Assembly (NCBI RefSeq): GCF_036507355.1
Contig: NZ_AP027877.1
Direction: 5' to 3' (one strand)
Origin: Escherichia coli
Lineage (GTDB): Bacteria; Pseudomonadota; Gammaproteobacteria; Enterobacterales; Enterobacteriaceae
Length of the DNA: 64,000 nt
Below the pieces are notes generated by a model that saw only the letters and a list, made by a program, of their open reading frames with translations, did no database searches and had not been told where the DNA came from. This document shows positions 4,700 through 36,410 of the stretch, one piece after another. The position numbers and the translations under genes were made by a program. Numbering within the stretch: the first letter of the stretch is position 1; each line of letters starts with the position of its first letter.

Positions 4700-4706
4700 T
4701 AAGAAA

Positions 4707-5837: not shown

Positions 5838-6239
5838 AATTTTATCCTCGTTTGAATTAATACACTGATTTAAAAAGTAGCATGTCGTGTTAGCGAGGTA
5901 ATCCTAAAACGTGAATGGGATCAGGGGCAAGCTTGAATCTGCGTAAGGATATGGCTTAAATTTAATGGTGTAATTAGTGGATTAGAGGCTTATAGCTATT
6001 TAAATACAATAAGTTATGACGGTGTGTGGCGGGTGTAAATCGGTTAGTTTTTATGGTTAAAATATGAGCGCTATGAGGTTTCAGAGATGGTGGTGTTTAA
6101 ATTACATAAAACCAAGGCCTGATAATCAGTATCAATACCGGAACGATGTCATATGATTAACACTGTCTATGGCATTGATAATGATCTATGCAAGGCTGAA
6201 ATTAGCTCTGCTTCACGATGATATAGTGTTCTATAAAGA

Positions 6240-7475: not shown

Positions 7476-7778
7476 CGTTGCCGATTATGGATGATGTCAG
7501 CTTCACACACCAGTACGGGTGATATATGGATCATCATTACCCCAACGGCAGTTTTACACCATGGCTAATATGGATGCTATCTTACTAAGATAATTGGTTT
7601 TTAGCGAGTGACGAGCCAGGTTGTGTCAGTCTGTCTCATGTCGATATTACGGGGATGATGCAAACCTGAATGCTGCGATATTGGCGTGTCAGGGGAGGCA
7701 TCTTACGGTATCATTTACCGCAATTTTTAAGATGCAAAGCCCTGCATCGCTAGCTTTTTCTTCAGACCAGGATGATTC

Positions 7779-11246: not shown

Positions 11247-11295
11247 TGAATCTTCATGTGACCAGTAGCGAGTAGCGCCAGAAAGAAAAGGATTA

Positions 11296-14200: not shown

Positions 14201-14583
14201 TGAAACAGTACCTTTTGTTCCGTGAATTTGAAGAACAGGTTGAAGCCCGTAAGCTCAGCGATATCCCGGATGCACTGGCGGTAAACAAGCATGCTCAGGC
14301 GTATTACGGTGTATTTAAAAAAGAGCTACCTGAGGTTTTTGCGGTAAACGACGTTCAGGTGCAGGATAAGTGGACCAAGCTGGCTTTTGAAGTGGACAAC
14401 ATTATCGTCAAAGCGGTGGCAGAAAACTCCCTGAACCCCCAGGACATTGAGAAAGTCGTTAAGACAAGTCTGCTACCACTGCTGTTTACGGCCTGCCGGG
14501 AAATTGGTGCCGGAATGAATCAGGTTAACCGTATTGTGGAAACCATCATCCAGATACTGCGCGTTGGTTTGATGAAATCATGA
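11296..14583 (+). CDS. hsdR: Type I restriction enzyme, restriction (helicase-nuclease) subunit R
   Basis: 1095 aa; Walker A TGSGKSYTM and DEAH-box LIDEGHRSQ; typical HsdR N-terminus. Confidence 0.95.
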   Translation: MMNQTYTPKFQEEYSAKIPALTLLTSLGWTFLSPKQIMDYRGYKQDEVVLRPVLREELSKRSFMAGGKTCQLSEKALDNLISQVCSPALNEGLLKANERMYNHLLYGIAVTEFVDGKKVNPTIALIDWEHPESNQFHFTEEFTVLRSGGVETRRPDIVCFVNGIPLAVIEAKSPAGHGKKGPTIDEGISQSIRNQLNDEIPQLFAYSQILLSINGHDGRYGTCHTPMKFWAAWREEDITYAQMYALRNHKLSTEQIHALFDDRPSVDLKWYQQLIDGGELAVSGQDKLLISLLSPERLLEMTRFFTLFDKKTGKIVARYQQVFGIKRLLERISTRRPDGGREGGVIWHTTGSGKSYTMVFLSKALILHDSLKQCRIVVVTDRVDLEGQLSGTFVSGGELAGKDDKAKAMATSGQKLAQQIGSGKERIIFTLIQKFNSATKLPECVNTSPDIIVLIDEGHRSQGGENHVRMKLALPNAAFVAFTGTPLLKEDKTTNKFGPIVHAYTMQRAVEDKAVTPLLYEERIPDLEVNDRAIDAWFDRITDGLSEAQKADLKRKYARKGEVYSADDRIRLIALDIATHFSKNIDEGLKGQLACDSKISAIKYKKYLDEAGLFESAVVISPPDTREGNTEVDESKLPEVTKWWKDNVGTQDESVYTRNIISRFDTDEKLKLLIVVDKLLTGFDEPKNTVLYIDKPLKSHNLIQAIARVNRLHPLKKFGLLIDYRGILAELDTTIGKYQDLASRTQGGYDIKDIDGLYSAMSSEYKRLPHLYNQLWAIFAGVKNKNDTEQLRAVLVPKMEERDGEMVDIHQKTRDDFFEALTAFAGCLKVALQSATFFTDKSFTEQDRNLYKETVKQMSSLRQWAMQVSGEQVNYDDYAEQVKKLLDKHVTGVEVREPDGVYEVGKMGKSEKPEEWDNNKTRNETDIIKTRVTKMIEQELRDDPYAQEAFSKLLRMAIEEAEKLFDHPLKQYLLFREFEEQVEARKLSDIPDALAVNKHAQAYYGVFKKELPEVFAVNDVQVQDKWTKLAFEVDNIIVKAVAENSLNPQDIEKVVKTSLLPLLFTACREIGAGMNQVNRIVETIIQILRVGLMKS

Positions 14584-15335
14584 GTGAAAAAGAATCGCCA
14601 TCAATGAAAGCGTTACGCATTGTCTATGGTGATGATGTCATCACCGTACAGTGTGTTCCGCGTCAGGTCGTAAAGGGCAGGGTGCTCATCAAGGTTTATC
14701 CGGACTGCCGGGTTGTGGCCTCTGTACCGCCTGAAACACCGGAGCACGAGGTATTGTCTGCGCTGAAAAAAAGAGGGCGCTGGATATACCAGCAACTGCG
14801 TGATTTCAGGGAGCAACAGACACACATTGTTCCGCGTCAGTATGTCAGCGGAGAAAGCCATTATTATCTCGGTAAGCAATATCAGTTGAAAGTGACAGAA
14901 GACGCTACTGTGCCGCAACGAGTGAAAATGTTGCGTGGGCGTCTGGAAGTGACTGTCAGACACAAATCGGCAGAAAAGATTAAAGCCTTGCTGGCTGAAT
15001 GGTATCGGGAACGTGCCAGAGATGTTTTTCAGCGCAGGCTTGATTTACTGATTCCGCAGACCCTTTGGGTCAGTGAGCGTCCTCCGATACGTCTGCGGGC
15101 GATGCAAACGCAATGGGGCAACTGTTCAGCAAAAGGCTGTCTGACCCTGAATCCATGGCTGGTTAAGGCATCCTCAGAATGTATCGATTATGTTTTGCTA
15201 CATGAGTTATGCCATGTGGCTGAGCACAACCACAGCGAGGAGTTTTACCGTCTGATGGGGCAGGTTATGCCTGGGTGGGAAAAGGTCAAGAAACGACTGG
15301 ATGGGATGGCTGGGATGTTGTTGGCTGATATGTAA
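14580..15335 (+). CDS. DUF45 / YgjP-like (M48-type) zinc metallopeptidase, translationally coupled to hsdR
   Basis: 251 aa; HEXXH motif HELCHVAEHNH near the C-terminus; ATGA overlap with the hsdR stop. Confidence 0.8.
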   Translation: MSEKESPSMKALRIVYGDDVITVQCVPRQVVKGRVLIKVYPDCRVVASVPPETPEHEVLSALKKRGRWIYQQLRDFREQQTHIVPRQYVSGESHYYLGKQYQLKVTEDATVPQRVKMLRGRLEVTVRHKSAEKIKALLAEWYRERARDVFQRRLDLLIPQTLWVSERPPIRLRAMQTQWGNCSAKGCLTLNPWLVKASSECIDYVLLHELCHVAEHNHSEEFYRLMGQVMPGWEKVKKRLDGMAGMLLADM

Positions 15336-15393
15336 CTTATCAATATGAGTTCTTAAGGGTTTGGTCAGTCTCGTTAATGTAGGGAGTATAATA

Positions 15394-17232
15394 ATGAGTA
15401 AGTTAGATAATAAAATTGAAGCACGCCATCGTAATTTGTTTGATGTTCTAAATGCGCAAAAATATACCGTTGATTACTTTCAGCGCGAGTATAGCTGGGG
15501 TGAGAAACATATTGAAGAGTTGGTTACAGACTTAACATCTGCGTTTCTCAATGAATACACCGTCGGTGATTCTCGGGAGCAGGGTGAAAACTACAATAAT
15601 TATTACTTAGGACCATTTGTTGTGAGTAGTAAAGATGGGAAACGGAGTATTATTGATGGTCAGCAACGACTGACTTCATTAACTTTATTTCTAATTTACC
15701 TCCATAACCTTCAGAAAGAACTTAAATATGAAGAGAAAATAGAATCAATGATTTTCTCCGAGTTACGTGGCAGCAAATCATTCAATATAGTAGTTGAAGA
15801 CAGAATACCTTGCATGGAAGCATTGTTTAATTTTGGTAGCTATAGTTTAGTTGATGGGGATGATGAGTCAACCCATAACATGGTGGAGAGATATCAGAAT
15901 ATCACAGATGCTTTTCCTGATGAATTAAAAGGTCAGGCTTTTCCTTTTTTTATCGACTGGCTTAAGTATAACGTTATTATGGTTGAGATAGTTGCCTATT
16001 CAGATGAAAACGCATATACCATCTTTGAGACTATGAATGACCGAGGATTAAATCTTACTCCGTCCGAAATGCTTAAAGGTTTTTTACTTTCACGCTTTCA
16101 TCAGGGAGATAAACGCCAAAAGGTAAATGAACTCTGGAAAAAAGCGATGATGGATTTAAAAAACTATGATAAAGATGAAGACCAACGTTTTTTCCAGTCA
16201 TGGTTGCGTGCTCAATATGCTGATACAATACGCCCGGGTAAAGCTGGTTCAAAAAATGAAGACTTTGAAAAAATAGGTACGCGTTTTCATAGCTGGGTTA
16301 GAGATAATCTTCAGGCGGTGGGATTGGACCCAGATAATGGTGAGACATTCGAACGATTTATACAAAAAAACTTTTTGTTTTATTTGAATGCCTATACACA
16401 AATACTGAATGCTGAGAGAGCATTAACGCACCAACTGGAATATGTATTTTATATCCACCATTGGGGTATTGCACCTACTTTAAGTTTCCCTTTGATGTTG
16501 GCTCCATTAAATGTAGGTGACAGTCCTGATGCTGTGATAGCCAAAATAAACCTGGTGGCGCGCTATATTGAAACATTTGTTGTTCGTCGTTCTGTTAATT
16601 TCCGAAAATTCTCTGCCAGTTCTATTCGTTACACAATGTACAGTCTTGTTAAAGAAATTCGTGGTAAAAGTATTGAAGAATTAAAAGATTTGTTATCTAA
16701 GAAGTTATCCGAAATGCCAGATACTTTTGCAGGAATGGAAGAGTTTCGTCTCCATGGTCAAAACTATCGTTTTGTGAAGTTTTTGCTTTCTCGTATAACT
16801 GCGTGGGTTGAGCAGCAAGCCGGAATGAGTACAACCTTCATTACATATTATCAGCCAGAACACGGTAAGCCATTTGAAGTCGAGCATATTTGGGCCGATA
16901 AATATGAACGTTACTCTGATGAGTTTGAACAAGAGCACGAATTTAACAATTACAGAAATCGCTTAGGTGATTTGGTTTTATTACCTAGAGGCTCAAACCA
17001 GTCATATGGTGATTTGTGTTACGATCAAAAGCAACCTCATTACATCAAAGAGAATCTCCTGGCTAAATCGTTATGCCCATTGGCATATATGAATAACCCT
17101 AATTTCAATCAGTTGAGAAATGTATTCGGATTGCCTTTCAAACCACATGATTCATTTAAAAAACAAGATGTCGATGAACGACAGTCTTTGTATAAAATAA
17201 TTTGTGAGAATATTTGGGACCATAATTTATAG
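15394..17232 (+). CDS. DUF262 (ParB-like, DGQQR) / DUF1524 (His-Me finger) protein, GmrSD-like type IV restriction candidate
   Basis: Motif IIDGQQRLTSL in the N-terminal half; C-terminal EVEHIWADKY...NRLGDLVLLPRGSNQS. I place the start at ATG 15394 with SD agggag 7 nt upstream; the track uses TTG at 15361. Confidence 0.75.
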   Translation: MSKLDNKIEARHRNLFDVLNAQKYTVDYFQREYSWGEKHIEELVTDLTSAFLNEYTVGDSREQGENYNNYYLGPFVVSSKDGKRSIIDGQQRLTSLTLFLIYLHNLQKELKYEEKIESMIFSELRGSKSFNIVVEDRIPCMEALFNFGSYSLVDGDDESTHNMVERYQNITDAFPDELKGQAFPFFIDWLKYNVIMVEIVAYSDENAYTIFETMNDRGLNLTPSEMLKGFLLSRFHQGDKRQKVNELWKKAMMDLKNYDKDEDQRFFQSWLRAQYADTIRPGKAGSKNEDFEKIGTRFHSWVRDNLQAVGLDPDNGETFERFIQKNFLFYLNAYTQILNAERALTHQLEYVFYIHHWGIAPTLSFPLMLAPLNVGDSPDAVIAKINLVARYIETFVVRRSVNFRKFSASSIRYTMYSLVKEIRGKSIEELKDLLSKKLSEMPDTFAGMEEFRLHGQNYRFVKFLLSRITAWVEQQAGMSTTFITYYQPEHGKPFEVEHIWADKYERYSDEFEQEHEFNNYRNRLGDLVLLPRGSNQSYGDLCYDQKQPHYIKENLLAKSLCPLAYMNNPNFNQLRNVFGLPFKPHDSFKKQDVDERQSLYKIICENIWDHNL

Positions 17233-17290
17233 CAAAGTTAGGGTGTTAATTAATCTGTAATGGCATCATGATTTTTAAAAGGAGGTTGAA

Positions 17291-18418
17291 TTGCGTTCTG
17301 AAACGTTTTTTGTCAAATTTATTGAACAACTGAAAGGTATTTCGGTTGAGGATGATGTTGAATTCAATTTTTTTGAATTGGGTGGTTCCGGATATCTCGA
17401 AAATCCAACTACGGATTTGATGGCTTTGTTTATGGGAGCCCAGAAAATGGTGCCGCCATGGTTGCTCAAAGCATTGCTATGTTGCCTGGATGATTCCCTC
17501 GATGTTGATGAAATTGATTTCACTTCTCTGGAGCTAATGAGAGAGGCCCGAACAGAAGATGGGAAATATATTGATATTCTTATCAGACATGATGAATTCA
17601 TTATAGGTATTGAGCATAAAGTTCTGGCTGATACATATAATCCTTTTCCCAGCTATGTAAGTCTCATTGATAGTTACGGCGGCAACAATCAAAAACTATT
17701 TCGCTGTATATTAAAGCCTGACGGTAACAGCGCTAAAGGCGTAGACGGTTGGCAACTGATCAATTATTCACTGCTGCTGGAAACCGCCATTCGACGTCTG
17801 GGGTTGGAGATGATGAATCAAGAGTTCAGCAAGTGGACTGTTTTTTATCAGGAGTTTTTAAGTCATCTTAAAAAATTGAGTGAGGTTAGTATGGATAAGG
17901 TATCTGATAAAAATGTGGAGTTTGTCACTGAAAATTTCTCAGCTTTGATAAAATCGGTTCAACTGCTGGAAATGTACCAAAATGCTATCACCGAGGAAGC
18001 TAAATCGGTTGTCTCAGAGGTATTGCCTGATATTCATATTGCAACAGGTATTAATAACTGGAAGGGTTACTATAAAGCAATTCATCTGATGCCGGGATGC
18101 TGGGGGCAAGGTAAAACAGGAATTACGTTAGTTTATCGCCCTTCAGAGGATGGACGAGATGAAGCTGAGTTCTACGTATATGGATGGATACATTCAGATG
18201 ATTACCCTGAAGTTAATGCACTAAAAGAAGAAATAAGAGTTGCTTTAAGTGCTGGAGATTTCATTCCAACAGCTAGCCCTGAGGACTATGAAGTATCAAT
18301 TACTGGGAAGGGGAAAGTGCTTGAACTGAGTTTTTGGGGGAATACGAGAAGCAAAAAAGATGCACTGGTTCTTCTTAAGGATATGACTAAGTGGATGGAC
18401 TCAAAAATAAGAACATAA
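17291..18418 (+). CDS. Hypothetical protein, 375 aa, with PD-(D/E)XK-like motif
   Basis: TTG start preceded by strong SD aaaaggagg; YIDILIRHDEFIIGIEHKV resembles a D...E-x-K nuclease core; remainder has no recognisable domain. Confidence 0.5.
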   Translation: MRSETFFVKFIEQLKGISVEDDVEFNFFELGGSGYLENPTTDLMALFMGAQKMVPPWLLKALLCCLDDSLDVDEIDFTSLELMREARTEDGKYIDILIRHDEFIIGIEHKVLADTYNPFPSYVSLIDSYGGNNQKLFRCILKPDGNSAKGVDGWQLINYSLLLETAIRRLGLEMMNQEFSKWTVFYQEFLSHLKKLSEVSMDKVSDKNVEFVTENFSALIKSVQLLEMYQNAITEEAKSVVSEVLPDIHIATGINNWKGYYKAIHLMPGCWGQGKTGITLVYRPSEDGRDEAEFYVYGWIHSDDYPEVNALKEEIRVALSAGDFIPTASPEDYEVSITGKGKVLELSFWGNTRSKKDALVLLKDMTKWMDSKIRT

Positions 18419-18522
18419 AGTAATATGACTGAGTGATGACGATCTTTTTTAAATTGTGGATTATTAGGCTGGTAATTGAAGCGCCGAATAGACAGATATT
18501 GGAATAAAAGGAGAATATTCAA

Positions 18523-19704
18523 ATGATTTATCAGTGTGATACTTGCAGTAGAACGACTTTTGAGGTTAATTGTCCCTGGTGTAGTGGAGTTTCGCCTGTA
18601 AAAACGTCTGCATGGGGTTCAGCATCATCGACCGCACAAGCAATAGGCATACAACGTATGACACCATTGAATCCATCGTTTTATCCCGAATTTCAGTATC
18701 GTTCAAAGGGTGTTCTAAAAGATCTATTTGGGAAAAAGAAAGAGCAAACTCAGCTTAATCAATTGCTTGAAAATGTTCTCAAAAAATACTCCAGTTTAAA
18801 AGATCCATATTTTACTAACTTCATTTACACTTCCAGATTCTCACATAATAATAAATCGGAAGCAGATTACTCAACAGATAATGGTACATACTCCGAATTA
18901 CAACTTTTCCGTGAGGTGTTGGTCAGAAAAGGGTTCAATGAGCTTGAGCAGTTACCTGAGCTATTAGATAAATTACTCCTTACCACGTCATTTAACGCTC
19001 TTTATTATGGTTTCGCTAAGGAAGTTAAACGGCATATTAAATCCACACTTACTGAATCCTTGAAGTCATGGATTGAGGAAGCGGGTACCACTTTTAGGGC
19101 AGATCTTTCATTGTTTCTATTCTATATATGGAGCAATAAAATAGAGTTCTCATCAGTAGAGTTCAATGAAAAAGCGGAGGCTACGCCTGGTGTTCCTTTA
19201 GTTTCATTTGATGAAGTTAAAAAATACTTAGCTGTGTGCGAACATATTTATTTTGATATTCTGGTTGATAGATTAGCTACACGGCTCGAACATTTTAACC
19301 CTAACAAATTCGTCACCATGTATTTAGTTGATGCAATGGACGGTTTCCAGTTTGAAGATTTCCTTGTGGAAGTATTCCAGACTATGGGCTATGACGTCAA
19401 AGAAACCAAGAGAACGCAAGATCAGGGGGCAGATCTCTTCGTCACTCGATTTGGTAAGGATATGGTTATTCAGGCGAAAAATTATTCTGGTTCTGTAGGT
19501 AACTCGGCGGTGCAGCAGGTGATCTCTGCTAAAACATTCTATGGTTGTGATGAGGCGATGGTTGTGACTAATTCCTACTTCACACGCTCTGCCAAAGAAT
19601 TAGCTGAATCAGCCTTGGTACGTTTGATCGACAGGGATGAACTGCAAAAGTATCTGGATGATTACAATCAGAAGATAATTGAAGATTTCCAGTCAAACTC
19701 GTAA
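18523..19704 (+). CDS. Restriction endonuclease-like protein: N-terminal Cys4 zinc-ribbon plus C-terminal Mrr catalytic domain
   Basis: N-terminus CDTCSRTTFEVNCPWC; C-terminus GADLFVT...VIQAKNYSGSV...VVTNSYFTRSAKELA...LIDRDEL, colinear with the E. coli Mrr catalytic region as I recall it (D...Q-x-K). Confidence 0.75.
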   Translation: MIYQCDTCSRTTFEVNCPWCSGVSPVKTSAWGSASSTAQAIGIQRMTPLNPSFYPEFQYRSKGVLKDLFGKKKEQTQLNQLLENVLKKYSSLKDPYFTNFIYTSRFSHNNKSEADYSTDNGTYSELQLFREVLVRKGFNELEQLPELLDKLLLTTSFNALYYGFAKEVKRHIKSTLTESLKSWIEEAGTTFRADLSLFLFYIWSNKIEFSSVEFNEKAEATPGVPLVSFDEVKKYLAVCEHIYFDILVDRLATRLEHFNPNKFVTMYLVDAMDGFQFEDFLVEVFQTMGYDVKETKRTQDQGADLFVTRFGKDMVIQAKNYSGSVGNSAVQQVISAKTFYGCDEAMVVTNSYFTRSAKELAESALVRLIDRDELQKYLDDYNQKIIEDFQSNS

Positions 19705-19889
19705 CTTTGCAGTCATATAGATATAGCAAAGGACAGGTAGGCCTCCGTGAGAGGGGGACTTACCTGTGCAGATTCTGTGCTCAAAGTTATCCAAGTCTAT
19801 CTATTTACTGCCAATTACAGTAAAATGAGTAAGCAATTACAGCAAAGTTTCGCAATGCACTGCTATGTAACTCATTGATCCTGCGTAGA

Positions 19890-19945
19890 ATTTAAAATCC
19901 CTCGGCGTTCGCGCTGTGCGGGTTCAAGTCCCGCTCCGGGTACCA
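19890..19945 (+). repeat. 3'-terminal 56 nt of tRNA-Leu (leuZ-type; anticodon loop to CCA), the att-site remnant at the right boundary of the element
   Basis: ATTTAAAATCCCTCGGCGTTCGCGCTGTGCGGGTTCAAGTCCCGCTCCGGGTACCA matches the 3' part of tRNA-Leu(UAA) as I recall it; the 5' acceptor and D-arm are absent upstream, so this is not a complete tRNA gene. Confidence 0.8.
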
Positions 19946-19988
19946 TGGGAAAGATAAGAATAAAATCAAAGCAATAAGCAGTGTCGTG

Positions 19989-20013
19989 AAACCACCTTCG
20001 GGTGGTTTTTTTG
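19989..20013 (+). terminator. Rho-independent terminator (aaccacc ttcg ggtggtt + T-run) downstream of the tRNA remnant
   Basis: Perfect 7-bp stem, 4-nt loop, run of 7 T. Confidence 0.65.
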
Positions 20014-20140
20014 TGCCTGCAACTTGTCGTTACACCCTCCTTAATTTTTAATCACCGGCAAAGCCACTCAAAAAGTATCTCTGATACGGACCGGCATGTA
20101 AGATAGGTGTTGGCGAGTTGAGATCCACAAGGAAAAGCGT

Positions 20141-20806
20141 ATGAAAACGGGACCGTTAAACGAAAGTGAGTTGGAATGGCTGGACGATATTCTGACCAAA
20201 TACAACACTGACCACGCCATCCTTGATGTGGCGGAGCTGGACGGTTTATTGACGGCGGTGTTGAGTTCTCCGCAAGAGATTGAACCGGCACAGTGGCTGG
20301 TTGCCGTGTGGGGTGGGGCTGACTATGTGCCGCGCTGGGCGTCAGAGAAAGAGATGACGCGCTTTATGAACCTGGCTTTTCAACATATGGCCGATACCGC
20401 AGAGCGTCTGAACGAATTCCCGGAGCAGTTTGAGCCGTTATTCGGCTTGCGAGAAGTTGATGGCAGCGAGCTGACGATTGTTGAGGAGTGGTGCTTTGGC
20501 TATATGCGGGGCGTGGCACTTTCTGACTGGTCAACATTGCCCGATTCGTTAAAACCAGCGCTGGAGGCGATAGCGCTGCACGGTACTGAGGAAAACTTCG
20601 AGCGGGTAGAGAAGATGTCGCCAGAAGCGTTTGAAGAGAGCGTAGATGCCATTCGACTGGCGGCGCTTGATCTACATGCGTACTGGATGGCGCATCCGCA
20701 GGAAAAAGCTGTTCAGCAACCGATCATAGCAGAAGAGAAACCGGGGCGTAACGATCCTTGCCCGTGCGGTAGTGGTAAGAAATTTAAGCAGTGCTGCCTG
20801 CATTAA
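20141..20806 (+). CDS. yecA: UPF0149-family protein YecA with SEC-C motif (chromosomal copy)
   Basis: 221 aa; ends [20 protein letters not shown]; position between tRNA-Leu and tyrP as in K-12. Confidence 0.9.
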
Positions 20807-20867
20807 GAAGTCAAATTGGGTGTCAGCGTTAATTCTGGCACCCAATAAGGAATTTGAGGCTATCTAA

Positions 20868-22079
20868 TCACCCCACTTCTGGTAACAACCCTGCCGCAAT
20901 CAAAAATTGCACGCCAATCACAGCAATACCACAGAGAAACACCACCACCAGCGCCGGACGACCACCTTTGACCCGGTAACCCGCTTGAGGATTGTGCTTT
21001 CTGCTTTGCCAGGTCAACAGCGAAGGGATAATCAATGCCAGTACCGCCAGCGCCACACCGGCGTAACCCAGCGCCATCACAAATCCTCGTGGATAAAACA
21101 GTGCAAACGCCAACGGCGGCAGAAAGGTAATTGCACCAGTTTGCAATCTTCCACCAACGGTATTTGAACGCTGAAACAAATCAGCCAGATAATCAAATAA
21201 GCCTAACGCAACGCCGAGAAATGACGTGGCGAGGGCTAAATCAGCAAATAAATGCACTGCCAGCTCAACATGCGGAGAGGCCACCATTTCGCGTAACGCC
21301 TGTAACAGCCCGTTTAATCCGGCATGATTAGCCAGCAATCCCATAAAGGTTGTTGAATCAATGCTGCCAAGCGTCGCCACCTGCCAGAAAATATATGCCA
21401 CCAGGGGGATCGCACTACCGGTTATAAACACCCAGCGTAGCTTACGAATGTTGCCATCCATATAGCTGACAATACTCGGCACGCTACCGTGAAAACCAAA
21501 CGACGTAAAAATCACCGGGATTGCAGACAGTGCCAGCCCCTGTTGCAACGGCAGGGTTAAAAGATTCACTTTGTGAATATGCGGTAGCAGCAATACCAGC
21601 ATCACCACCAGAAAAATAATTTTGGCGCTGAACAGAAAACGGTTAAATAAATCGACCAGCGATGTTCCAACACAAACCACGCCACCGGCAACAAAAGTGA
21701 ACAACAGCACGCCAGCGGTTGCCGACATTGAAATACCTGTCCAGTCGCTGATGCTGGAGGCCAACAATTCACCGGCACCGCTGATGTATGCCGCAGTCAG
21801 AGCATACATTAAGAACATCATACTGAAGCCCGTCAGCCATTGACCGTAGCGTCCCAGATAGCGTTTTGCCAGCGTGCCCAGACCGGTATCTGCCGGAACA
21901 TGCTGGTACACCTCCAGCAGTAATAGCGCCGTGTAGCACATCAACGCCCAAAGCCCAATCAACAAGATTAACGTAACGCTAAAACCAACACCGGCCGCAG
22001 CCAGCGGCATTGCCAGCATGCCTGCGCCAATTGTGGTTCCCGCCACGATAAAAACACTTCCCAGGGTTCTGTTTTTCAC
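20868..22079 (-). CDS. tyrP: Tyrosine-specific transport protein
   Basis: 403-aa polytopic membrane protein; sequence and synteny match TyrP. Confidence 0.9.
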
Positions 22080-22269
22080 GCTTTCTTCTGTCCTGACGAT
22101 CTTTATGAGTGATATCTGCGGCGCAGGTTAAGGCATAACGGCTGCTTCGTCAAACCGACGTTACATATGGTGTAAATATAAATGTACAATAAAAAGCATT
22201 CAGTCCTGCGCTGGCGCAAAGTCTTCATAAGCGGCAATCGCTACGCTAGGCTTTTTTTGAGGAGGAACG

Positions 22270-22509
22270 ATGGACTCTATTCACGGTCATGAAGTGTTAA
22301 ATATGATGATTGAATCAGGCGAGCAATATACGCATGCCAGTCTGGAAGCTGCGATTAAAGCGCGTTTTGGTGAACAGGCACGTTTTCACACCTGCTCGGC
22401 AGAAGGGATGACAGCGGGAGAGCTGGTAGCGTTTCTGGCAGCAAAAGGCAAATTTATACCTTCAGAAGACGGTTTTTCGACCGATCAGAGTAAGATTTGC
22501 CGTCACTGA
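22270..22509 (+). CDS. yecH: DUF2492-family small protein YecH
   Basis: 79 aa; position between tyrP and ftnA. Confidence 0.8.
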   Translation: MDSIHGHEVLNMMIESGEQYTHASLEAAIKARFGEQARFHTCSAEGMTAGELVAFLAAKGKFIPSEDGFSTDQSKICRH

Positions 22510-22545
22510 TTTGAAACGGCGGCAGAAACCTGCCGCCGGAGAGCA

Positions 22546-23043
22546 TTAGTTTTGTGTGTCGAGGGTAGAGAGTTCTTTGTCGATAAAATACAGACCTTCG
22601 CCGCTTTTGCCTGCCAGGCTTAATTTATCAATAATCGATTTGAACAGTTTCTCTTCTTCATGCTGCTCAGAAACATACCACTGCAGGAAATTAAATGTTG
22701 GGTAGTCCTGATTGGTCATTGCAGCATGAGCCAGTTCGTTAATTTTCTGGGTGATTAATTGTTCGTGTTTATAGGTTTCCTGGAATAATTCATCAAGTGA
22801 GGAATATTCAGCAAACGGAGATTCAACGGTATTAATACGCGGTAAATTGCCGGTATCAGTCAGGTAATCAAACAGACGCTGCATATGCGTCATCTCTTCC
22901 TGGGCGTGACGGCGCAGGAACGCGGCAGCACCTTCGAAGGTATGATAGCTGCACCAGGCGCTCATTTGCTGATAAAGCAGTGAAGAGTACAGTTCCAGGT
23001 TCATCTGCTCATTAAGTTTTTCAATCATTTCTGGTTTCAGCAT
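22546..23043 (-). CDS. ftnA: Ferritin A
   Basis: Start taken at [13 protein letters not shown] (ATG 23043); ferritin-like diiron residues present. Confidence 0.9.
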
Positions 23044-23213
23044 GATAGTGCTCCACAAAGGTTATATTTGTTGCTGTGGCGTCACTATAATTTGTTATTT
23101 TATTATTTGCAAAAGGTAAAATATAAACTTCAATTATTAAAAATACGAATGGGAATAAAACGCATTACCGCTATTTCTTTAATCAGCGAAGATCCCCTCG
23201 CTGATTAAAATAT

Positions 23214-23537
23214 TTAGAGAAAGACAGGGAAGGCGGAATGATGGCACTGATATGACAAAGTGAATTCCGTATTCAAACATAAGGAACCCGCAAAAAGGCT
23301 ACAGTTGCCTACTGGCTGACCAAAGGGGATCGCGTGGGTATAGCCTTCCTGTTGGCATGCGCGATCGGCGATCCCGCGACTGACATAACGATCGGTATGG
23401 GCATGCTGCAAAAAAGCCTGGTCATAAACCAACCGTACAATACCTGTTGCCGCGTCAACTTCGCTCACATGGGCCTGGCGAGTAACCGTACACCCCGCCA
23501 GCGTTATTAATGAAAGAGTCAGAATCAGAAGTCTCAT
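23214..23537 (-). CDS. yecR: Lipoprotein YecR
   Basis: 107 aa; signal peptide with lipobox LAGC. Confidence 0.75.
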   Translation of the reverse strand: MRLLILTLSLITLAGCTVTRQAHVSEVDAATGIVRLVYDQAFLQHAHTDRYVSRGIADRACQQEGYTHAIPFGQPVGNCSLFAGSLCLNTEFTLSYQCHHSAFPVFL

Positions 23538-23799
23538 GGTCCAGCCAGAAGAGTAAGAGAAAGCACTATTTTACGCGTTACAGCGCTGCGACAATGGCCG
23601 GAAAAGACGCCTGGCAGGCGCTATTTCTTGCCATCTGTAGGTGTCAGAAATAGGGGGGCTGTTTTTTGATTATCATTTTTATAACATTAAAGGGGTATTT
23701 ATGTGATTTGTATCACATAAAGATTGATTTTTGTGATGGTTGTCATATTATAAGCGCAAAGACAATAACACCTGTATAACAAATGGTCGGAGTGCCGCG

Positions 23800-23886
23800 A
23801 TGAAACTGCGCAAAATCCTGAAAAGTATGTTCAATAACTATTGCAAGACGTTCAAAGACGTACCGCCAGGCAATATGTTCCGATAA
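23800..23886 (+). CDS. azuC: Small protein AzuC, 28 aa
   Basis: ORF MKLRKILKSMFNNYCKTFKDVPPGNMFR followed by a terminator; below the ORF-track length cutoff. Confidence 0.6.
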   Translation: MKLRKILKSMFNNYCKTFKDVPPGNMFR

Positions 23887-23916
23887 CAAAAAACCTGCTC
23901 CGGCAGGTTTTTTTGT
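23887..23916 (+). terminator. Rho-independent terminator after azuC (aacctgctccggcaggtt + T-run)
   Basis: Stem-loop plus T-run. Confidence 0.6.
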
Positions 23917-24000
23917 GTCCTGATGACGGTGGATGTGACTATCGCTGAAGATGTGAAGCCGCTACTATAACGGCTTTCAAAATGCTATCAGGAGTTTACG

Positions 24001-24252
24001 ATGTCCCAGCCGCTGAATGCCGATCAGGAACTGGTTTCTGATGTGGTTGCTTGCCAGTTGGTTATCAAACAAATTCTGGATGTTCTCGATGTAATCGCGC
24101 CCGTTGAAGTTCGCGAAAAAATGTCCAGCCAGCTGAAGAATATCGACTTTACTAACCATCCCGCCGCCGCAGACCCGGTCACCATGCGGGCAATCCAAAA
24201 AGCCATCGCGCTGATTGAACTCAAGTTTACCCCACAGGGCGAATCCCATTAA
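24001..24252 (+). CDS. yecJ: DUF2766-family protein YecJ
   Basis: 83 aa; synteny. Confidence 0.75.
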
Positions 24253-24330
24253 AAAACCGCTGCTTCAAAAAGATGAGGCAGCGGTTTCTCAAAAACTTCA
24301 TCGGCGCAATGCATTAGCGCCGATGTATGA

Positions 24331-24834
24331 TCAATGCAGCTGGTGTGACACGACATTCAGAACATGTTGGTCGGTCTGCACTGGGCACATACCAGCAAGT
24401 TTCGCACTGCGCACTTCATCAAGAATGGTTTGCAGCAACAGGCCATCATGCTGCTGTTCTTTTTCCAGATCGCGCAGGAAATTGACGGTTGAATCATCAT
24501 TCAGTTCTTTCGCTTCATCGGCTAACTGCGCCAGCGTGCTTGAACGTTGCTCGTATTCTTCCATCGTTTTTTGGAACAGTTCTTCCAGAGAGTTCAGTTT
24601 TTCACCGGGAACATCAATGGCTTTAACGATGGGGGTAGCGCCGACACTCTTCATAAAGTTAAACATGCGCATCATTTGGGTCACATTACTCTGTGCCTGG
24701 GCGCGAAGGAAAGTGGCGGTGCCGTTCAGACTCTGTTCAGAACACCAGTTACTCAGGTGAAGGTAGAGATTGGATGCGTAAAACTCGCGGTTCATTTGAG
24801 AGTTGAGTTTGAGAAGCATTCCAGCGGTTGCCAT
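24331..24834 (-). CDS. ftnB: Ferritin-like protein FtnB
   Basis: 167 aa; ferritin fold; synteny. Confidence 0.85.
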
Positions 24835-25630
24835 ACCTAATATCCTTATATCCAGAAGTGGAGAGGTGCAAGATAAATCAAAACACCATAATTACTGTTT
24901 GCAGAATAATTCCTTTCTGCCGGTCCGAAATGTGATCGTGGAGTCAATTCTGACGATGCTCTGAAATAAGAATAACGTCTGAACGGGTATAAGAAAATGC
25001 TTAAATCATCAAGTTTATATATTTTTACATTTCATTGATGAAATCAATGTAACTGCAATGAATTTTAATGATAGTGCTTTTTGTATCTTGTTGATATTAA
25101 TCGATGAATTTGAATTCATGATGAAGTGATGATTTTATAAAACGTTTTTTCATTTTTGCGAGATGGCTCTCATTATACGTGTTCTGTTAATTAATGAGCA
25201 CAGTGATAATTAATGGCGAAATGAATGACGCGCATTTTCCACATCTTTGAGTTGTGGTTATTACACCATTTCAAAAACTCAACGCCAGGTAATGCGGCCT
25301 ATTGACTGGTTAAAAAGAAGACATCCCGCATGGGTACCAAAGACAACAAGGATTTCCAGGCTAATCTTATGGATTAATCTGCTGTGCATTCGACAATTTG
25401 TCTGACAAATTGGCTTTCCCTTATGTCTTTTCCCGCTAAATTTATGCACGTTCTCACTGTAATTCTGCGATGTGATATTGCTCTCCTATGGAGAATTAAT
25501 TTCTCGCTAAAACTATGTCAACACAGTCACTTATCTTTTAGTTAAAAGGTAATGCTTTGTTTTCCGATTAATTTAACGAATGTCATTCGTTTTTGCCCTA
25601 CACAAAACGACACTAAAGCTGGAGAGAACC

Positions 25631-26620
25631 ATGCACAAATTTACTAAAGCCCTGGCAGCCATTGGTCTGGCAGCCGTTATGTCACAATCCGCTATGGCGG
25701 AGAACCTGAAGCTCGGCTTTCTGGTGAAGCAACCGGAAGAGCCGTGGTTCCAGACCGAATGGAAGTTTGCCGATAAAGCCGGGAAGGATTTAGGATTTGA
25801 GGTTATTAAGATTGCCGTGCCGGATGGCGAAAAAACATTGAACGCGATCGACAGCCTGGCCGCCAGTGGCGCAAAAGGTTTCGTTATTTGTACTCCGGAC
25901 CCGAAACTCGGCTCTGCCATCGTGGCGAAAGCGCGTGGCTACGATATGAAAGTCATTGCCGTGGATGACCAGTTTGTTAACGCCAAAGGTAAGCCAATGG
26001 ATACCGTTCCTCTGGTGATGATGGCGGCGACCAAAATTGGCGAACGTCAGGGCCAGGAACTGTATAAAGAGATGCAGAAACGTGGCTGGGATGTCAAAGA
26101 AAGCGCGGTGATGGCGATTACCTCCAACGAACTGGATACGGCTCGTCGCCGTACTACGGGTTCTATGGATGCGCTGAAAGCTGCAGGATTCCCGGAAAAA
26201 CAAATTTATCAGGTACCTACCAAATCTAACGACATCCCCGGGGCATTTGACGCTGCCAACTCAATGCTGGTTCAACATCCGGAAGTTAAACATTGGCTGA
26301 TCGTCGGTATGAACGACAGCACCGTGCTGGGCGGCGTACGCGCGACGGAAGGTCAGGGCTTTAAAGCGGCCGATATCATCGGTATCGGTATTAACGGTGT
26401 GGATGCGGTGAGCGAACTGTCTAAGGCACAGGCAACCGGCTTCTACGGTTCCCTGTTGCCAAGCCCGGACGTACATGGTTATAAGTCCAGCGAAATGCTT
26501 TACAACTGGGTAGCAAAAGGTGTTGAACCGACCAAATTCACCGAAGTTACCGACGTGGTGCTGATCACGCGTGACAACTTTAAAGAAGAACTGGAGAAAA
26601 AAGGTTTAGGCGGTAAGTAA
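25631..26620 (+). CDS. araF: L-arabinose ABC transporter periplasmic binding protein
   Basis: Start at MHKFTKALAA with SD ggagag; signal peptide; synteny. Confidence 0.9.
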   Translation: MHKFTKALAAIGLAAVMSQSAMAENLKLGFLVKQPEEPWFQTEWKFADKAGKDLGFEVIKIAVPDGEKTLNAIDSLAASGAKGFVICTPDPKLGSAIVAKARGYDMKVIAVDDQFVNAKGKPMDTVPLVMMAATKIGERQGQELYKEMQKRGWDVKESAVMAITSNELDTARRRTTGSMDALKAAGFPEKQIYQVPTKSNDIPGAFDAANSMLVQHPEVKHWLIVGMNDSTVLGGVRATEGQGFKAADIIGIGINGVDAVSELSKAQATGFYGSLLPSPDVHGYKSSEMLYNWVAKGVEPTKFTEVTDVVLITRDNFKEELEKKGLGGK

Positions 26621-26689
26621 TTTGCCGGAAAAATTCCCCTCTGCATGATGCAGAGGGGGTGTGAACGACCAGTGATTCACGGAGACGTT

Positions 26690-28204
26690 ATGCAACAGTC
26701 TACCCCGTATCTCTCATTTCGCGGCATCGGTAAAACGTTTCCCGGCGTTAAGGCGCTGACGGATATTAGTTTTGACTGCTATGCCGGTCAGGTTCATGCG
26801 TTGATGGGTGAAAATGGCGCAGGAAAATCAACTCTCTTAAAAATCCTCAGCGGCAACTATGCGCCAACCACGGGTTCTGTAGTGATTAATGGGCAGGAAA
26901 TGTCCTTTTCCGACACGACCGCAGCACTTAACGCGGGTGTGGCGATTATTTACCAGGAACTGCATCTCGTGCCGGAAATGACCGTCGCGGAAAACATCTA
27001 TCTCGGCCAGCTGCCGCATAAAGGCGGCATTGTGAATCGCTCATTGCTGAATTATGAGGCGGGTTTACAACTTAAACATCTTGGTATGGATATTGACCCG
27101 GACACGCCGCTGAAATATCTCTCCATTGGTCAGTGGCAGATGGTTGAAATCGCCAAGGCGCTGGCGCGTAACGCTAAAATTATCGCCTTTGATGAGCCAA
27201 CCAGCTCCCTTTCTGCCCGCGAAATCGACAATCTTTTCCGCGTTATTCGTGAACTGCGAAAAGAGGGGCGGGTGATCTTATACGTTTCTCACCGTATGGA
27301 AGAAATATTTGCCCTCAGCGATGCCATCACTGTCTTTAAAGATGGACGTTATGTCAAAACCTTTACCGATATGCAGCAGGTTGACCACGACGCGCTGGTG
27401 CAGGCGATGGTCGGGCGCGACATTGGCGATATCTACGGCTGGCAACCGCGTAGTTATGGCGAGGAGCGCCTGCGTCTTGATGCTGTGAAAGCACCAGGCG
27501 TGCGTACGCCAATAAGTCTGGCGGTTCGCAGTGGTGAAATTGTTGGGCTGTTTGGTCTGGTAGGGGCGGGGCGTAGCGAATTAATGAAAGGCATGTTTGG
27601 CGGGACGCAAATCACCGCCGGTCAGGTTTATATCGACCAACAGCCGATCGATATTCGTAAACCGAGCCACGCCATTGCCGCAGGCATGATGCTCTGCCCG
27701 GAAGATCGCAAAGCGGAAGGCATTATTCCCGTGCACTCCGTTCGCGACAATATCAACATCAGTGCCAGACGTAAACATGTGCTCGGCGGTTGTGTAATCA
27801 ACAACGGTTGGGAAGAAAACAATGCCGATCACCACATTCGTTCGCTCAACATCAAAACGCCGGGCGCGGAGCAACTGATCATGAATCTCTCAGGCGGAAA
27901 TCAGCAAAAAGCCATTCTGGGCCGCTGGTTATCGGAAGAGATGAAGGTCATTTTGCTGGATGAACCTACGCGCGGCATTGATGTTGGCGCTAAGCACGAA
28001 ATATATAACGTAATTTATGCGCTGGCGGCGCAGGGTGTGGCGGTGCTGTTTGCCTCCAGCGACTTACCTGAAGTCCTCGGCGTTGCCGACCGGATTGTGG
28101 TGATGCGGGAAGGTGAAATCGCCGGTGAATTGTTACACGAGCAGGCAGATGAGCGTCAGGCACTGAGCCTTGCGATGCCTAAAGTCAGCCAGGCAGTTGC
28201 CTGA
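26690..28204 (+). CDS. araG: L-arabinose ABC transporter ATP-binding protein (two ABC domains)
   Basis: Start at [10 protein letters not shown]; Walker [10 protein letters not shown]. Confidence 0.9.
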
Positions 28205-28215
28205 GTAAGGAGAGT

Positions 28216-31571
<3,356 letters not shown>

Positions 31572-31577
31572 GAGCGG

Positions 31578-32006
31578 TTAATCTCCCGTAAGTGGAACTA
31601 ACAGCACATCGACCTCACTTGAGGCAATCACTCTTTTCGCCGAGCAGGATGCTCGCGAAAAGAAACTGTGATTGTGATTACCGCAAATCACCAAATCGAA
31701 ATGATATTTGCGACAAACTTCCAGAATATGTTCGCTTAACTCACCGTAGGCAATAAACGTCTTGTCAACGGGATACCCCGCATCCTGAATTAACTTATCA
31801 AGAAAGCTTTGCGTTTCTTCCTGCATCACGCTGCGTAAATCTTCAAGCATCGGCGCAGCTAATTGATTGTACATTTCCGGGTCGGAAGCGAGAGTAATTA
31901 AACTGATGTGTCCCTTTACTGGCCTGGCGATAGATACCGCTTTTGCCAGCAGTTGCTGACTTTCCGGTGTAACCGCAACAGCGACAAGAATATTGCTATA
32001 GCTCAT
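31578..32006 (-). CDS. uspC: Universal stress protein C
   Basis: 142 aa Usp-fold protein; synteny. Confidence 0.85.
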   Translation of the reverse strand: MSYSNILVAVAVTPESQQLLAKAVSIARPVKGHISLITLASDPEMYNQLAAPMLEDLRSVMQEETQSFLDKLIQDAGYPVDKTFIAYGELSEHILEVCRKYHFDLVICGNHNHSFFSRASCSAKRVIASSEVDVLLVPLTGD

Positions 32007-32785
32007 AACCTGTTCCTTATTCTGTGAACTTCAGGTGACATTAAAGCTTTACTCCTAATGGAGAAACGACGCAATCCCAACTCAGTCAAACAGGTAAATA
32101 TTAGTCTGATTATTAGTAAAGACAATTAATCAATCACTCTCGGTGATCATATGATTTCAACTGTAATTATAAGAAAAAAATGTACTGATTCCCCGCATTA
32201 AACAAGTGGTTAATATATGCAAAACATTTTATTAACATTAAGTTGATTGTTGCCTTTCTTTGTATTTAATTAGTTTGTTGTGCGGTAAGTGTCTGTTTAA
32301 AAATAGCTTATCTGGTATTGCATGAAAGTGATTATTTATAGCAGATGATTATTTACGGTGAGTTATTTTAACTGTGCGCAACATCCCATTTCGATTATTC
32401 CTGTTTCATTTTTGCTTGCTAGCGTAGCGAAAAACTTTTTAACAGATTGAAATACACACAAAACAAAAGTATGACTTATACATTTATGTTAAGTAATTGA
32501 GTGTTTTGTGTGATCTGCATCACGCATTATTGAAAATCGCAGCCCCCCTCCGTTGTATGTGCGTGTAGTGACGAGTACAGTTGCGTCGATTTAGGAAAAA
32601 TCTTAGATAAGTGTAAAGACCCCCTTCTATTTGTAAGGACTTATTAAACCAAAAAGGTGGCTCTGCTTATTGCAGCTTATCGCAACTATTCTAATGCTAA
32701 TTATTTTTTACCGGGGCTTCCCGGCGACATCACGGGGTGCGGTGAAACCGCATAAAAATAAAGTTGGTTATTCTGGGTGGGAATA

Positions 32786-32989
32786 ATGCATACCTCCGAG
32801 TTGCTGAAACACATTTATGACATCAACTTGTCATATTTACTACTTGCACAGCGTCTGATTGTTCAGGACAAAGCGTCCGCTATGTTTCGTCTCGGCATAA
32901 ATGAAGAAATGGCGACAACATTAGCGGCACTGACTCTTCCGCAAATGGTTAAGCTGGCAGAAACCAATCCCAGGAGATGCCAAAGCTGA
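32786..32989 (+). pseudogene. flhD: flhD truncated after about 62 codons by a deletion junction
   Basis: Matches FlhD from [19 protein letters not shown] through KLAETN, then reads PRRCQS-stop. Confidence 0.8.
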
Positions 32990-33498
32990 CGGAAGATCTC
33001 GTTCCTGGCGTCGTCACGCTCACCACACTTCATAAAGTGCTGCAAAATCTCCTCGATGAAAAAGTACCGATTCGCGATATGCGCACCATTCTCGAAACGC
33101 TGGCGGAACATGCGCCCATCCAAAGCGATCCACATGAATTAACCGCCGTCGTGCGCGTGGCGTTGGGACGGGCGATTACCCAGCAGTGGTTTCCTGGCAA
33201 AGATGAAGTCCATGTTATTGGCCTCGATACACCGCTGGAACGTTTGTTACTACAGGCGCTGCAGGGCGGGGGCGGACTGGAGCCAGGGTTGGCGGATCGT
33301 TTACTGGCGCAAACTCAGGAAGCGCTATCCCGTCAGGAGATGTTGGGTGCGCCGCCAGTATTGTTGGTGAACCACGCGCTGCGACCATTATTGTCTCGCT
33401 TTCTGCGCCGCAGCTTACCGCAGTTAGTGGTGCTGTCGAATCTGGAACTATCTGATAACCGACATATCCGCATGACGGCGACAATTGGCGGTAAATGA
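32971..33498 (+). pseudogene. flhA: 3' fragment of flhA (C-terminal ~173 codons) fused to the flhD remnant
   Basis: [22 protein letters not shown]...RMTATIGGK matches the FlhA C-terminal cytoplasmic domain; the N-terminal ~500 codons are missing. Confidence 0.8.
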
Positions 33499-33890
33499 TG
33501 AGAACCTTATTAGCAATATTATTGTTTCCGCTGCTGGTGCAAGCCGCCGGGGAGGGGATGTGGCAGGCAAGTAGTGTCGGAATTACGCTAAATCATCGCG
33601 GTGAGTCGATGTCGTCTGCGCCTCTTTCTACGCGACAACCTGCTTCAGGATTGATGACGCTGGTAGCGTGGCGTTATCAGCTTATCGGCCCGACACCTGC
33701 AGGACTGCGGGTTCGCTTGTGTTCGCAATCTCGTTGTGTCGAATTAGAGGGGCAGAGCGGAACCACCGTGGCCTTTTCCGGTATAGCGGCAGCAGAACCG
33801 TTGCGCTTTATCTGGGAAGTGCCTGGCGGTGGGCGGTTAATTCCACCGCTAAAGGTACAACGGAATGAAGTGATTGTGAATTATCGCTGA
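33495..33890 (+). CDS. flhE: Flagellar protein FlhE
   Basis: 131 aa with signal peptide; ATGA overlap with the flhA stop. Confidence 0.85.
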   Translation: MMRTLLAILLFPLLVQAAGEGMWQASSVGITLNHRGESMSSAPLSTRQPASGLMTLVAWRYQLIGPTPAGLRVRLCSQSRCVELEGQSGTTVAFSGIAAAEPLRFIWEVPGGGRLIPPLKVQRNEVIVNYR

Positions 33891-34011
33891 AGGACAAATA
33901 AAAATTACGCGCTCGCGAGCATGTTTAATAACTCAGCGAAAAAGGCTCGATGTTTTGTTGCAATTATTTATCAGGAATAGCTTGCAACAAAACATGCCAA
34001 AAAGATGTGAA

Positions 34012-34500
34012 TTATCCTCTTGTCAAAGGGCTTGGATAAAAATCTTCAGAGTTACGGTATAGCTGCAACTGGCGAGTTCGCGTATTGGTCTGTATGATCA
34101 TACATGATAGCCATTCTGATTCAGAATAAGGGTCACTTAAATCCTGAACATCCTCATTTGAAAGGATTAATTCACATTCTTTGTCCCTAAAATCCAGCCA
34201 GGCTCGTTGTGATTTTTTAAGCAAGTTAAGTTGTTCGGTATCAGGTTTTTTTGCACCTGTGCGTGGCACTTGTTCTATATAACGATAAGCTTCACCATAA
34301 GCTTTATTTAATTGCGCATCGACGAGATTGTATTCTTGTCGCAGACATGATTTGATCACGTTAATGTCAGTATCATCATCTGAATTTTTTTGCCAACAAT
34401 CTTTGATGGCTGAAATGTCATGGTCGTTTACTATAACCGTATCTTCTGCGTAAGCCTGGCAAGAGATAATGCCTAATGTTAATACAAGAAATTTAAACAC
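34012..34500 (-). CDS. yecT: DUF1311 / LprI-like periplasmic protein YecT
   Basis: 162 aa; signal peptide; synteny. Confidence 0.7.
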   Translation of the reverse strand: MFKFLVLTLGIISCQAYAEDTVIVNDHDISAIKDCWQKNSDDDTDINVIKSCLRQEYNLVDAQLNKAYGEAYRYIEQVPRTGAKKPDTEQLNLLKKSQRAWLDFRDKECELILSNEDVQDLSDPYSESEWLSCMIIQTNTRTRQLQLYRNSEDFYPSPLTRG

Positions 34501-34621
34501 TGCGGTATTCCTTAAATTGAACCGTTATCGTTTTCCTGGGCCTGGATATTACGCTTCTGGCCTCTAACTCAACAGTGAGAAAACAATGGCATGTCCGTTT
34601 TCAGAATACATTTAGATGGCA

Positions 34622-34657
34622 ATAAAAAAGCCTGATCGGCTAACCCTGATCAGGCTT
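34622..34657 (-). terminator. Rho-independent terminator downstream of argS
   Basis: On the minus strand: gcctgatcagggttagccgatcaggc followed by a T-run. Confidence 0.6.
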
Positions 34658-34676
34658 CACTCTCACGAAAAATCGA

Positions 34677-36410
34677 TTACATACGCTCTACAGTCTCAAT
34701 ACCCAGCGTATCCAGACCCAGCTTCAGCGTCTTCGCCGTCAGTTGTGCCAGTTTCAGACGGCTGTTACGCACTTCTTCGTTTTCTGCGCTGAGGATCGGG
34801 CAGTGCTCGTAGAAGCCAGAGAACAGACCGGCCAGATCGTACAGGTAAGCACACATTACATGCGGCGTGCCTTCACGGGCAACCACGGTGAGGGTTTCTT
34901 CAAACTGCAGCAGGCGAGCTGCCAGTTGCGCTTCACGATCTTCACGGATGATAACCGGAGCTGCAGCCAGTTGCTCTTCGTCAATTTCTGCTTTACGGAA
35001 CACGGACAATACACGCGTGTATGCATACTGCATGTATGGCGCGGTATTACCCTCAAACGCCAGCATGTTGTCCCAGTCGAAGATGTAGTCCGTGGTGCGG
35101 TTTTTGGAGAGATCCGCATATTTCACCGCACCAATACCAACCGCGTTAGCCAGTTTTTCCAGCTCGTCGGCTGGCATATCCGGGTTCTTTTCTGCCACCA
35201 GACGGCGTGCACGTTCCAGGGCTTCATCCAGCAGGTCTGCCAGTTTCACCGTACCGCCCGCGCGGGTTTTGAACGGTTTGCCGTCTTTGCCCAGCATCAT
35301 GCCGAACATGTGGTGTTCCAGCGGTACGGATTCCGGTACATAGCCTGCTTTACGGACGATCGCCCATGCCTGCATCAGGTGTTGATGCTGACGGGAGTCG
35401 ATGTAATACAGCACGCGATCGGCATGCAGTGTTTCATAACGATATTTCGCACAGGCGATATCAGTGGTGGTGTAGAGATAGCCGCCATCTTTCTTCTGAA
35501 TGATAACGCCCATCGGTTCGCCTTCCTTGTTTTTAAACTCATCAAGGAATACGACGGTCGCCCCTTCGCTTTCTACTGCCAGACCTTTGGCTTTGAGATC
35601 CGCCACAATTCCTGGCAGCATTGGGTTGTAGAGGCTTTCGCCCATCACGTCATCACGGGTCAGCGTCACGTTGAGACGATCGTAAGTGATCTGGTTCTGC
35701 GTCATGGTGATGTCGACCAGTTTGCGCCACATCTCGCGGAAATATTCGTCACCGCTTTGCAGTTTTACCACGTAGTTACGTGCACGCTCGGCAAACTCTT
35801 CATCTTCGTCGTAATGCTTTTTCGCATCGCGGTAGAAACCTTCAAGGTCAGCCAGCTCCATTTCACCGGCGTTTTCCTGCTGCTGCTTTTCCAGCCATGC
35901 AATCAGCATACCGAACTGAGTGCCCCAGTCGCCGACGTGGTTTGCGCGAATCACTTTGTGACCGAGGAACTCCAGAGTACGCACTGCTGCGTCACCAATA
36001 ATGGTAGAGCGCAGGTGACCGACGTGCATCTCTTTCGCCACGTTTGGCGCAGAGTAGTCAACCACAATGGTCTGTTTTTCTGGCGTAGCAACACCGAGAC
36101 GATCGGACGCCAGCGCCTGCTGAACATGTTCAGCCAGGAATGCCGGATCAAGGAAAATGTTGATAAAGCCTGGACCGGCGATCTCAACTTTGCTGGCGAT
36201 ACCGTTAAGATCCAGATGAGTCAGCACCTGCTCTGCTAATTGTCGCGGTGCCATACCCAGTTTTTTAGCAACTGCCATCATGCCGTTAGCCTGATAGTCG
36301 CCGAACTGAACTTTTGCTGACTGACGAACCTGCGGTTCGCAATCCGCAGGCGCGCCTGCCGCAATCATGGCCTGACGGACTTTTTCTGAGAGAAGAGCCT
36401 GAATATTCAC
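34677..36410 (-). CDS. argS: Arginine--tRNA ligase
   Basis: 577 aa; class I HIGH signature (HVGHLRS). Confidence 0.95.

Follow-up and report, generated by a model that had tools for sequence, protein, structure and literature searches.

The Escherichia coli that carries this DNA has lost 14.5 kb between flhD and flhA, and we confirmed that the loss is real and inherited. One spontaneous illegitimate deletion of about 14.5 kb, passed down in a small natural lineage and predicted to abolish motility, very probably accounts for the observations. The window, meaning the whole stretch of 64,000 nucleotides that we analysed, aligned by BLAST to positions 1,925,000–2,020,000 of K-12 MG1655 in three collinear blocks (window 19890–32488, 32481–32969 and 32969–64000). 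Blocks two and three meet at window 32969, which corresponds both to K-12 1,978,014 (flhD nt 184) and to K-12 1,963,501 (flhA nt 1550). Running the K-12 alignment proposed in a preliminary description of this DNA thus mapped the breakpoint to one base, with an overlap of 1 nt only. The following features define the locus.

32007–32785, + strand: stretch between uspC and flhD, which includes the flhDC regulatory region and 5' UTR, collinear with K-12 apart from IS1
32786–32969, + strand: flhD remnant, nt 1–184 (codons 1–61 plus 1 nt), from K-12 mapping; residues 1–61 identical to E. coli FlhD (PDB 1G8E)
32786–32989, + strand: fusion open reading frame of 67 aa, FlhD 1–61 followed by PRRCQS and a stop, out of frame with flhA, from the ORF listing and K-12 mapping; its peptide is BED22058.1
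32969, no strand: deletion junction, the lone C common to flhD nt 184 and flhA nt 1550, placed base by base against K-12, G4/9 and O157:H7 TX 376-2
32969–33498, + strand: flhA remnant, nt 1550–2079 (codon 517 position 2 to the stop), from K-12 mapping
32970–32974, no strand: CCAGG Dcm site, flhA nt 1551–1555, read from the sequence and directly abutting the junction
32977–33498, + strand: 173-aa open reading frame from internal Met520 to K692 of FlhA (C-terminal part, cytoplasmic domain), from the ORF listing
33498–33890, + strand: flhE, intact (130/130 residues aligned, 99.2% identity, no stop)

The deletion is a single clean gap in an otherwise collinear chromosome. Collinearity with K-12 extends 13 kb leftwards and 31 kb rightwards from the gap, and the junction flanks match K-12 at 98.8% and 98.2–99.0% identity, well above chance. 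The missing segment measures 14,513 bp relative to MG1655, 14,513 bp relative to strain G4/9 and 14,511 bp relative to O157:H7 TX 376-2, smaller than the roughly 16 kb first estimated. Ancestral sequence at both breakpoints is identical in K-12, G4/9 and the O157:H7-type genome. By K-12 annotation the lost segment comprises flhD codons 62–116, flhC, the motR sRNA gene, motA, motB, cheA, cheW, tar, tap, cheR, cheB, cheY, cheZ, flhB and flhA codons 1–516. The gene list drawn up earlier from the sequence was exactly the K-12 content between the breakpoints, to which motR is to be added. None of the lost genes occurs anywhere in the 64-kb window, and flhC is missing from the locus.

The two remnants are joined out of frame. 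The FlhD match ends at KLAETN near 32969, as first described, and the fusion frame then runs through six further residues to a TGA stop at 32987–32989. The join of flhD codon ~62 to the end of flhA, also part of that description, was borne out by BLAST, and two details of it needed correction. One is the frame. The other is the extent of flhA, whose C-terminus had been said to start at about 32971 and to comprise the last ~173 codons: flhA sequence is kept from codon 517 position 2, at base 32969, and the 173-codon frame is present and starts at internal Met520, not at the junction. This frame aligns to residues 520–692 of full-length Salmonella FlhA structures. Its efficient translation is doubtful because AGGAG directly adjoins the ATG, leaving no spacer, so expression of the 173-aa product also appears doubtful from the sequence. 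The description of flhE as intact holds in full, all 130 residues aligning at 99.2% identity. Judging by gene order, flhE and the FlhA stub would now lie behind the flhD class 1 promoter, which would replace the lost flhBAE class 2 promoter; there is no reason to think that this matters without a flagellar export apparatus. Both remnants carry zero indels and encode residues identical to those of K-12, and nothing in the window appears to mark the deletion as ancient.

The lesion is isolated. Reading on the + strand unless noted, the gene order is otsB, otsA, uspC (−), the 779-bp intergenic region, the FlhD-like frame, the 173-aa frame, flhE, yecT (−) and argS (−). All 43 of the 43 flanking K-12 genes in the window, flhE among them, are full-length and stop-free, with 97.9–100% protein identity, and there are no IS elements in the 44 kb collinear with K-12. 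Because its neighbours are full-length and this 44 kb is free of IS elements, the deletion is an isolated lesion and not part of reductive genome decay of the Shigella/EIEC type. The flhDC regulatory region is in an uninterrupted wild-type arrangement: the window is without the IS1H found upstream of flhD in MG1655, and the 8-nt overlap between the first two blocks (32481–32488) is the K-12 target duplication. We considered whether post-deletion decay explains why differences from G4/9 and K-12 cluster upstream of flhD and rejected the idea, as these differences form a common, pre-existing haplotype in strains whose flhD is intact; the uspC-flhD haplotype is 99.7–99.8% identical to that of O157:H7-type strains with intact flhD. 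Promoter, terminator and repeat scans around the junction gave nothing meaningful, the simple sigma-70 scan missing even the flhDC promoter, and an Rfam scan of 19–40 kb returned MicL only.

The chromosome around the deletion is of mosaic ancestry. Across window 19900–35000, the far-left flank from yecA to otsA is nearest to the commensal strain G4/9 (99.7%), and the uspC-flhD intergenic region and the flhA'-flhE stub are nearest to O157:H7-type strains (99.6–99.8%). No complete genome is close to the window overall, and we used G4/9 as the ancestral proxy for the far-left flank and O157:H7-type strains for both junction-proximal flanks. The fli operons fall outside the window, whose left end, positions 1–19889, is a genomic island absent from K-12 that ends at a 3' fragment of the tRNA-Leu gene leuZ (~19890–19945), where ARAGORN found no whole tRNA. 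The same island occurs in strain RM14721, there with an additional SIR2 gene. In the window its type I restriction-modification system embeds a YecA-like/PDC-S12 gene and an M48 peptidase gene, and the island encodes the following.

3437–4564, − strand: tyrosine integrase
7779–9302: hsdM of the type I restriction-modification system
9292–10566: hsdS of the same system
11296–14583: hsdR of the same system
15361–17232: DUF262 HEC-06/Orf5-like gene
17291–18418: PD-(D/E)XK PDC-S26 gene
18523–19704: Mrr-like nuclease

The junction points to a deletion formed without homology. Compared with K-12, G4/9 and O157:H7, it contains no inserted sequence, IS end, FRT-like scar or filler DNA, in agreement with the earlier remark that no IS remnant is visible there; the repeat scan agrees as well. 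No direct or inverted repeats of at least 8 nt link the two breakpoints, and the longest word common to both sites within ±150 nt is 7 nt and lies away from the breakpoints. Random junctions simulated on the O157:H7 proxy shared 1 nt or more in 43% of cases, which makes the single-nucleotide overlap no more than chance would produce. Because the junction has no repeat, IS end, scar or filler, we favour a homology-independent deletion, in which illegitimate end joining would have linked flhD nt 184 to flhA nt 1550. The joining would have taken place at the base of a small natural E. coli lineage and been passed on since. Such joining would leave no specific signature, which makes illegitimate deletion a diagnosis by exclusion. 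Loss of flagella may then have been neutral or favoured, by saving their cost or by avoiding recognition of flagellin.

A more specific origin is suggested by the CCAGG site that abuts the flhA endpoint. Deamination of 5-methylcytosine classically makes the methylated C within CCAGG a hotspot for C-to-T change. In five of nine unrelated assemblies (L006, L008, L010, L011 and L012; locus position ~5995), the site at flhA codon 518 has changed from CCAGG to CTAGG, giving a Q518 amber; the remaining four carry E508* (L003), E519* (L007), L512* (L009) and a frameshift (L004). The nine were retrieved for having the same 173-aa frame, and the set is therefore biased towards truncations just upstream of Met520. 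Because the C-to-T change recurs at the methylated C, E. coli seems to have a natural motility-loss hotspot at flhA codon 518. The T:G mismatch left by deamination at this site could also have been nicked by Vsr, and the resulting break mis-joined to flhD. The flhA endpoint adjoins CCAGG, deamination does happen there, as the five amber alleles attest, and just ~2.2% of positions lie so near a CCWGG site. Against this, the argument is post-hoc and, with two breakpoints, the chance of such a coincidence is ~4%, which is not compelling; moreover, the flhD side is without a CCWGG site, and the retained CCAGG is unmutated. Very-short-patch (VSP) repair is not known to have an established connection with large deletions. 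The coincidence of endpoint and CCAGG is only suggestive, and we regard a Vsr nick as an improbable start for this deletion. Taken jointly, the two propositions that the Dcm site at codons 517–518 is a motility-loss hotspot and that a Vsr nick there began the deletion are decidedly unlikely. If true, such an origin would link VSP repair to large deletions.

Insertion sequences offer another route to the same gene loss. The gap could stem from an IS-mediated adjacent deletion of the type anchored by IS1 in the flhDC region of K-12 or of strains DAM and ANT, provided that the IS was later lost. DAM and ANT carry an IS1-anchored deletion of the same region whose flhA endpoint lies ~100 bp downstream of ours. 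Gut- and biofilm-selected K-12 deletions are likewise described as beginning at an IS upstream of flhD; in MC1000 the anchor of the flhDC-region deletion is IS5 (PMC3116916 and PMC5100188). In the window, however, there is no IS at or near the junction or upstream of flhD, and the left breakpoint falls within flhD rather than at the end of an IS. Adjacent deletions retain their IS, so that its later clean loss would be an extra, unsupported step. We consider this route very unlikely, and homology-independent joining remains the preferred reading.

The same junction recurs in independent public data. GenBank has the fusion peptide of 67 aa under BED22058.1 (E. coli, locus tag VEE46_18260; its contig measures 4.64 Mb), and a public assembly index records it on 7 contigs, three of which we retrieved. 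Such a peptide is possible only with the junction, and its deposits therefore attest the junction. The NCBI draft GCA_905398635.1 has the same junction and is 100% identical to the window across 12.5 kb; the Logan assembly of SRR31122001 also has it, with mismatches at 2 of 9,363 positions; and a 1.66-kb ENA metagenome contig, ERZ24911501, contains the exact junction. All three datasets share the junction 30-mer of the window. The junction was found in 0 of 5,426 complete RefSeq E. coli genomes, and exact-pattern matching found it in neither JGI metagenome contigs nor GTDB species-representative genomes. The deleted block is at least 80% present in one piece in 5,366 of the 5,426 complete genomes; its wholesale loss is uncommon, at most ~1%, and not unique. 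General literature searches and searches for the carrier accessions and the locus tag found no paper on the allele or its carriers. The junction sequence, unique over 30–40 nt, can be used to trace the lineage among isolates and through metagenomes.

The metagenome contig has an odd haplotype upstream of the junction. Between uspC and flhD, in the comparison with window 31900–32800, ERZ24911501 carries G4/9- and K-12-like alleles at 16 sites together with two gaps, one of 17 bp and one of 46 bp. A chimera or errors at its 1.8× coverage are the likely cause, with recombination after the deletion as the alternative. This haplotype counts against clonal inheritance as a complete account, since simple clonal descent alone does not explain it.

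These occurrences also bear on whether the deletion is natural and real. Flagellar regions are often deliberately removed from chassis strains, and recombineering or a reduced-genome strain could in principle have yielded the gap. Yet flhD runs straight into flhA with zero extra bases and no FRT, loxP or other scar, both cuts fall arbitrarily within their genes and out of frame, the strain background differs from K-12 (98.2–99.0% identity, with a 20-kb island absent from K-12), and the junction is also found in a metagenome contig; laboratory engineering is extremely unlikely. We give next to no credence to an assembly artefact, a collapse or chimera behind which the genes are really present, because four independent datasets, differing in source and assembler, show the identical junction, the peptide lies on 7 contigs, and no repeat common to both sides might cause a collapse. 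Misassembly had been named at the outset as one way to refute the deletion, which is upheld by recurrence of the junction in three other independent datasets. Since different projects and assemblers give the same joint, misassembly is ruled out and the allele is shown to pass down within a small lineage.

FlhD4C2 activates class 2 promoters, including those of fliA, flg, fli and flhBAE. The export gate cannot do without its components FlhA and FlhB, the stator consists of MotAB, and the chemotaxis pathway is made up of CheA/W/Y/Z/R/B together with Tar/Tap. The deletion takes from FlhD its C-terminal half and from FlhA three quarters; FlhC, MotAB, the whole che/tar/tap block and FlhB are lost entirely. 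Within the 64-kb window FlhDC is inactivated at its locus, with flhD truncated after codon 61 and flhC absent. Without FlhC and with half of FlhD, no FlhD4C2 would form and class 2 and class 3 flagellar genes elsewhere would stay off; even with those genes on, export gate and stator would be absent. Because activator, export gate, stator and chemotaxis genes are lost, established flagellar genetics soundly predicts a strain that is aflagellate, H-negative, non-motile, non-chemotactic and non-revertible. The leftover mini-operon, PflhD-flhD'(61 aa + 6)-'flhA(173-aa ORF)-flhE, would be expected to have no function.

This gene loss is read from 64 kb of the genome, and elsewhere there may be a duplicate made before the deletion, or a Flag-2 lateral system. 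A relocated copy of the excised block would be incomplete because flhD and flhA are both cut internally: it would lack the flhD promoter and the first 184 nt of flhD, and the last 529 nt of flhA. The strain is predicted to be irreversibly non-motile, H-negative and non-chemotactic.

The deletion is a rare allele of an ordinary, well-understood and repeatedly selected kind of gene loss. It adds one further natural case of E. coli repeatedly shedding a costly, immunogenic flagellar system, and it opens no new question. Deletions in MG1655 reportedly begin at IS1 upstream of flhD, as Leatham in 2005 and Gauger in 2007 are said to have found. According to PMC3116916 and PMC5100188, the latter citing Leatham 2005 and Gauger 2007, non-motile MG1655 mutants with flhDC-region deletions are selected quickly and time after time in mice, whether gnotobiotic or given streptomycin, and in chemostats short of nutrients. 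De Paepe et al. 2011 (PMC3116916) measured an 18% advantage for non-motile mutants in the chemostat and put natural E. coli isolates with absent or poor motility at about one half. Like the window, the selected MG1655 mutants have lost flhDC, with variable extension into the downstream mot/che genes; they are non-motile, as is predicted for the window. Unlike theirs, the window deletion is without an IS, begins inside flhD, lies in a wild non-K-12 background and spans the whole mocha, meche and flhBA operons into flhA.

A close natural parallel is in E. coli DAM (NZ_CM129523.1) and ANT, from seawater in Lebanon, which have the arrangement uspC-IS1-'flhA-flhE. As in the window, nearly the same genes are gone, a C-terminal flhA stub and intact flhE are kept, and the flanks are the same. 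Unlike in the window, IS1 is still present, all of flhD and its promoter are gone, and the flhA endpoint is at the window equivalent of 33067. Because its endpoints differ and the IS remains, the DAM/ANT deletion arose independently and belongs to another mechanistic type.

Shigella and flhA point pseudogenes arrive at similar outcomes by other lesions. IS1 is inserted in flhD of S. flexneri and in flhC of S. dysenteriae, as passages of PMC5100188 cite. Like the window, where non-motility is predicted, Shigella combines a natural, lineage-wide inactivation of FlhDC with loss of motility. The Shigella lesions are IS insertions or IS-linked and stand amid widespread decay, whereas the window has no IS and 43 of 43 intact neighbours. 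The flhA point pseudogenes (Q518 amber, E508*, L512* and E519*) resemble the window in that the export gate has been lost naturally, in independent events, and the same 173-aa frame left behind. Unlike the window deletion, they are single-base changes that keep flhDC and the mot and che genes and are revertible in principle.
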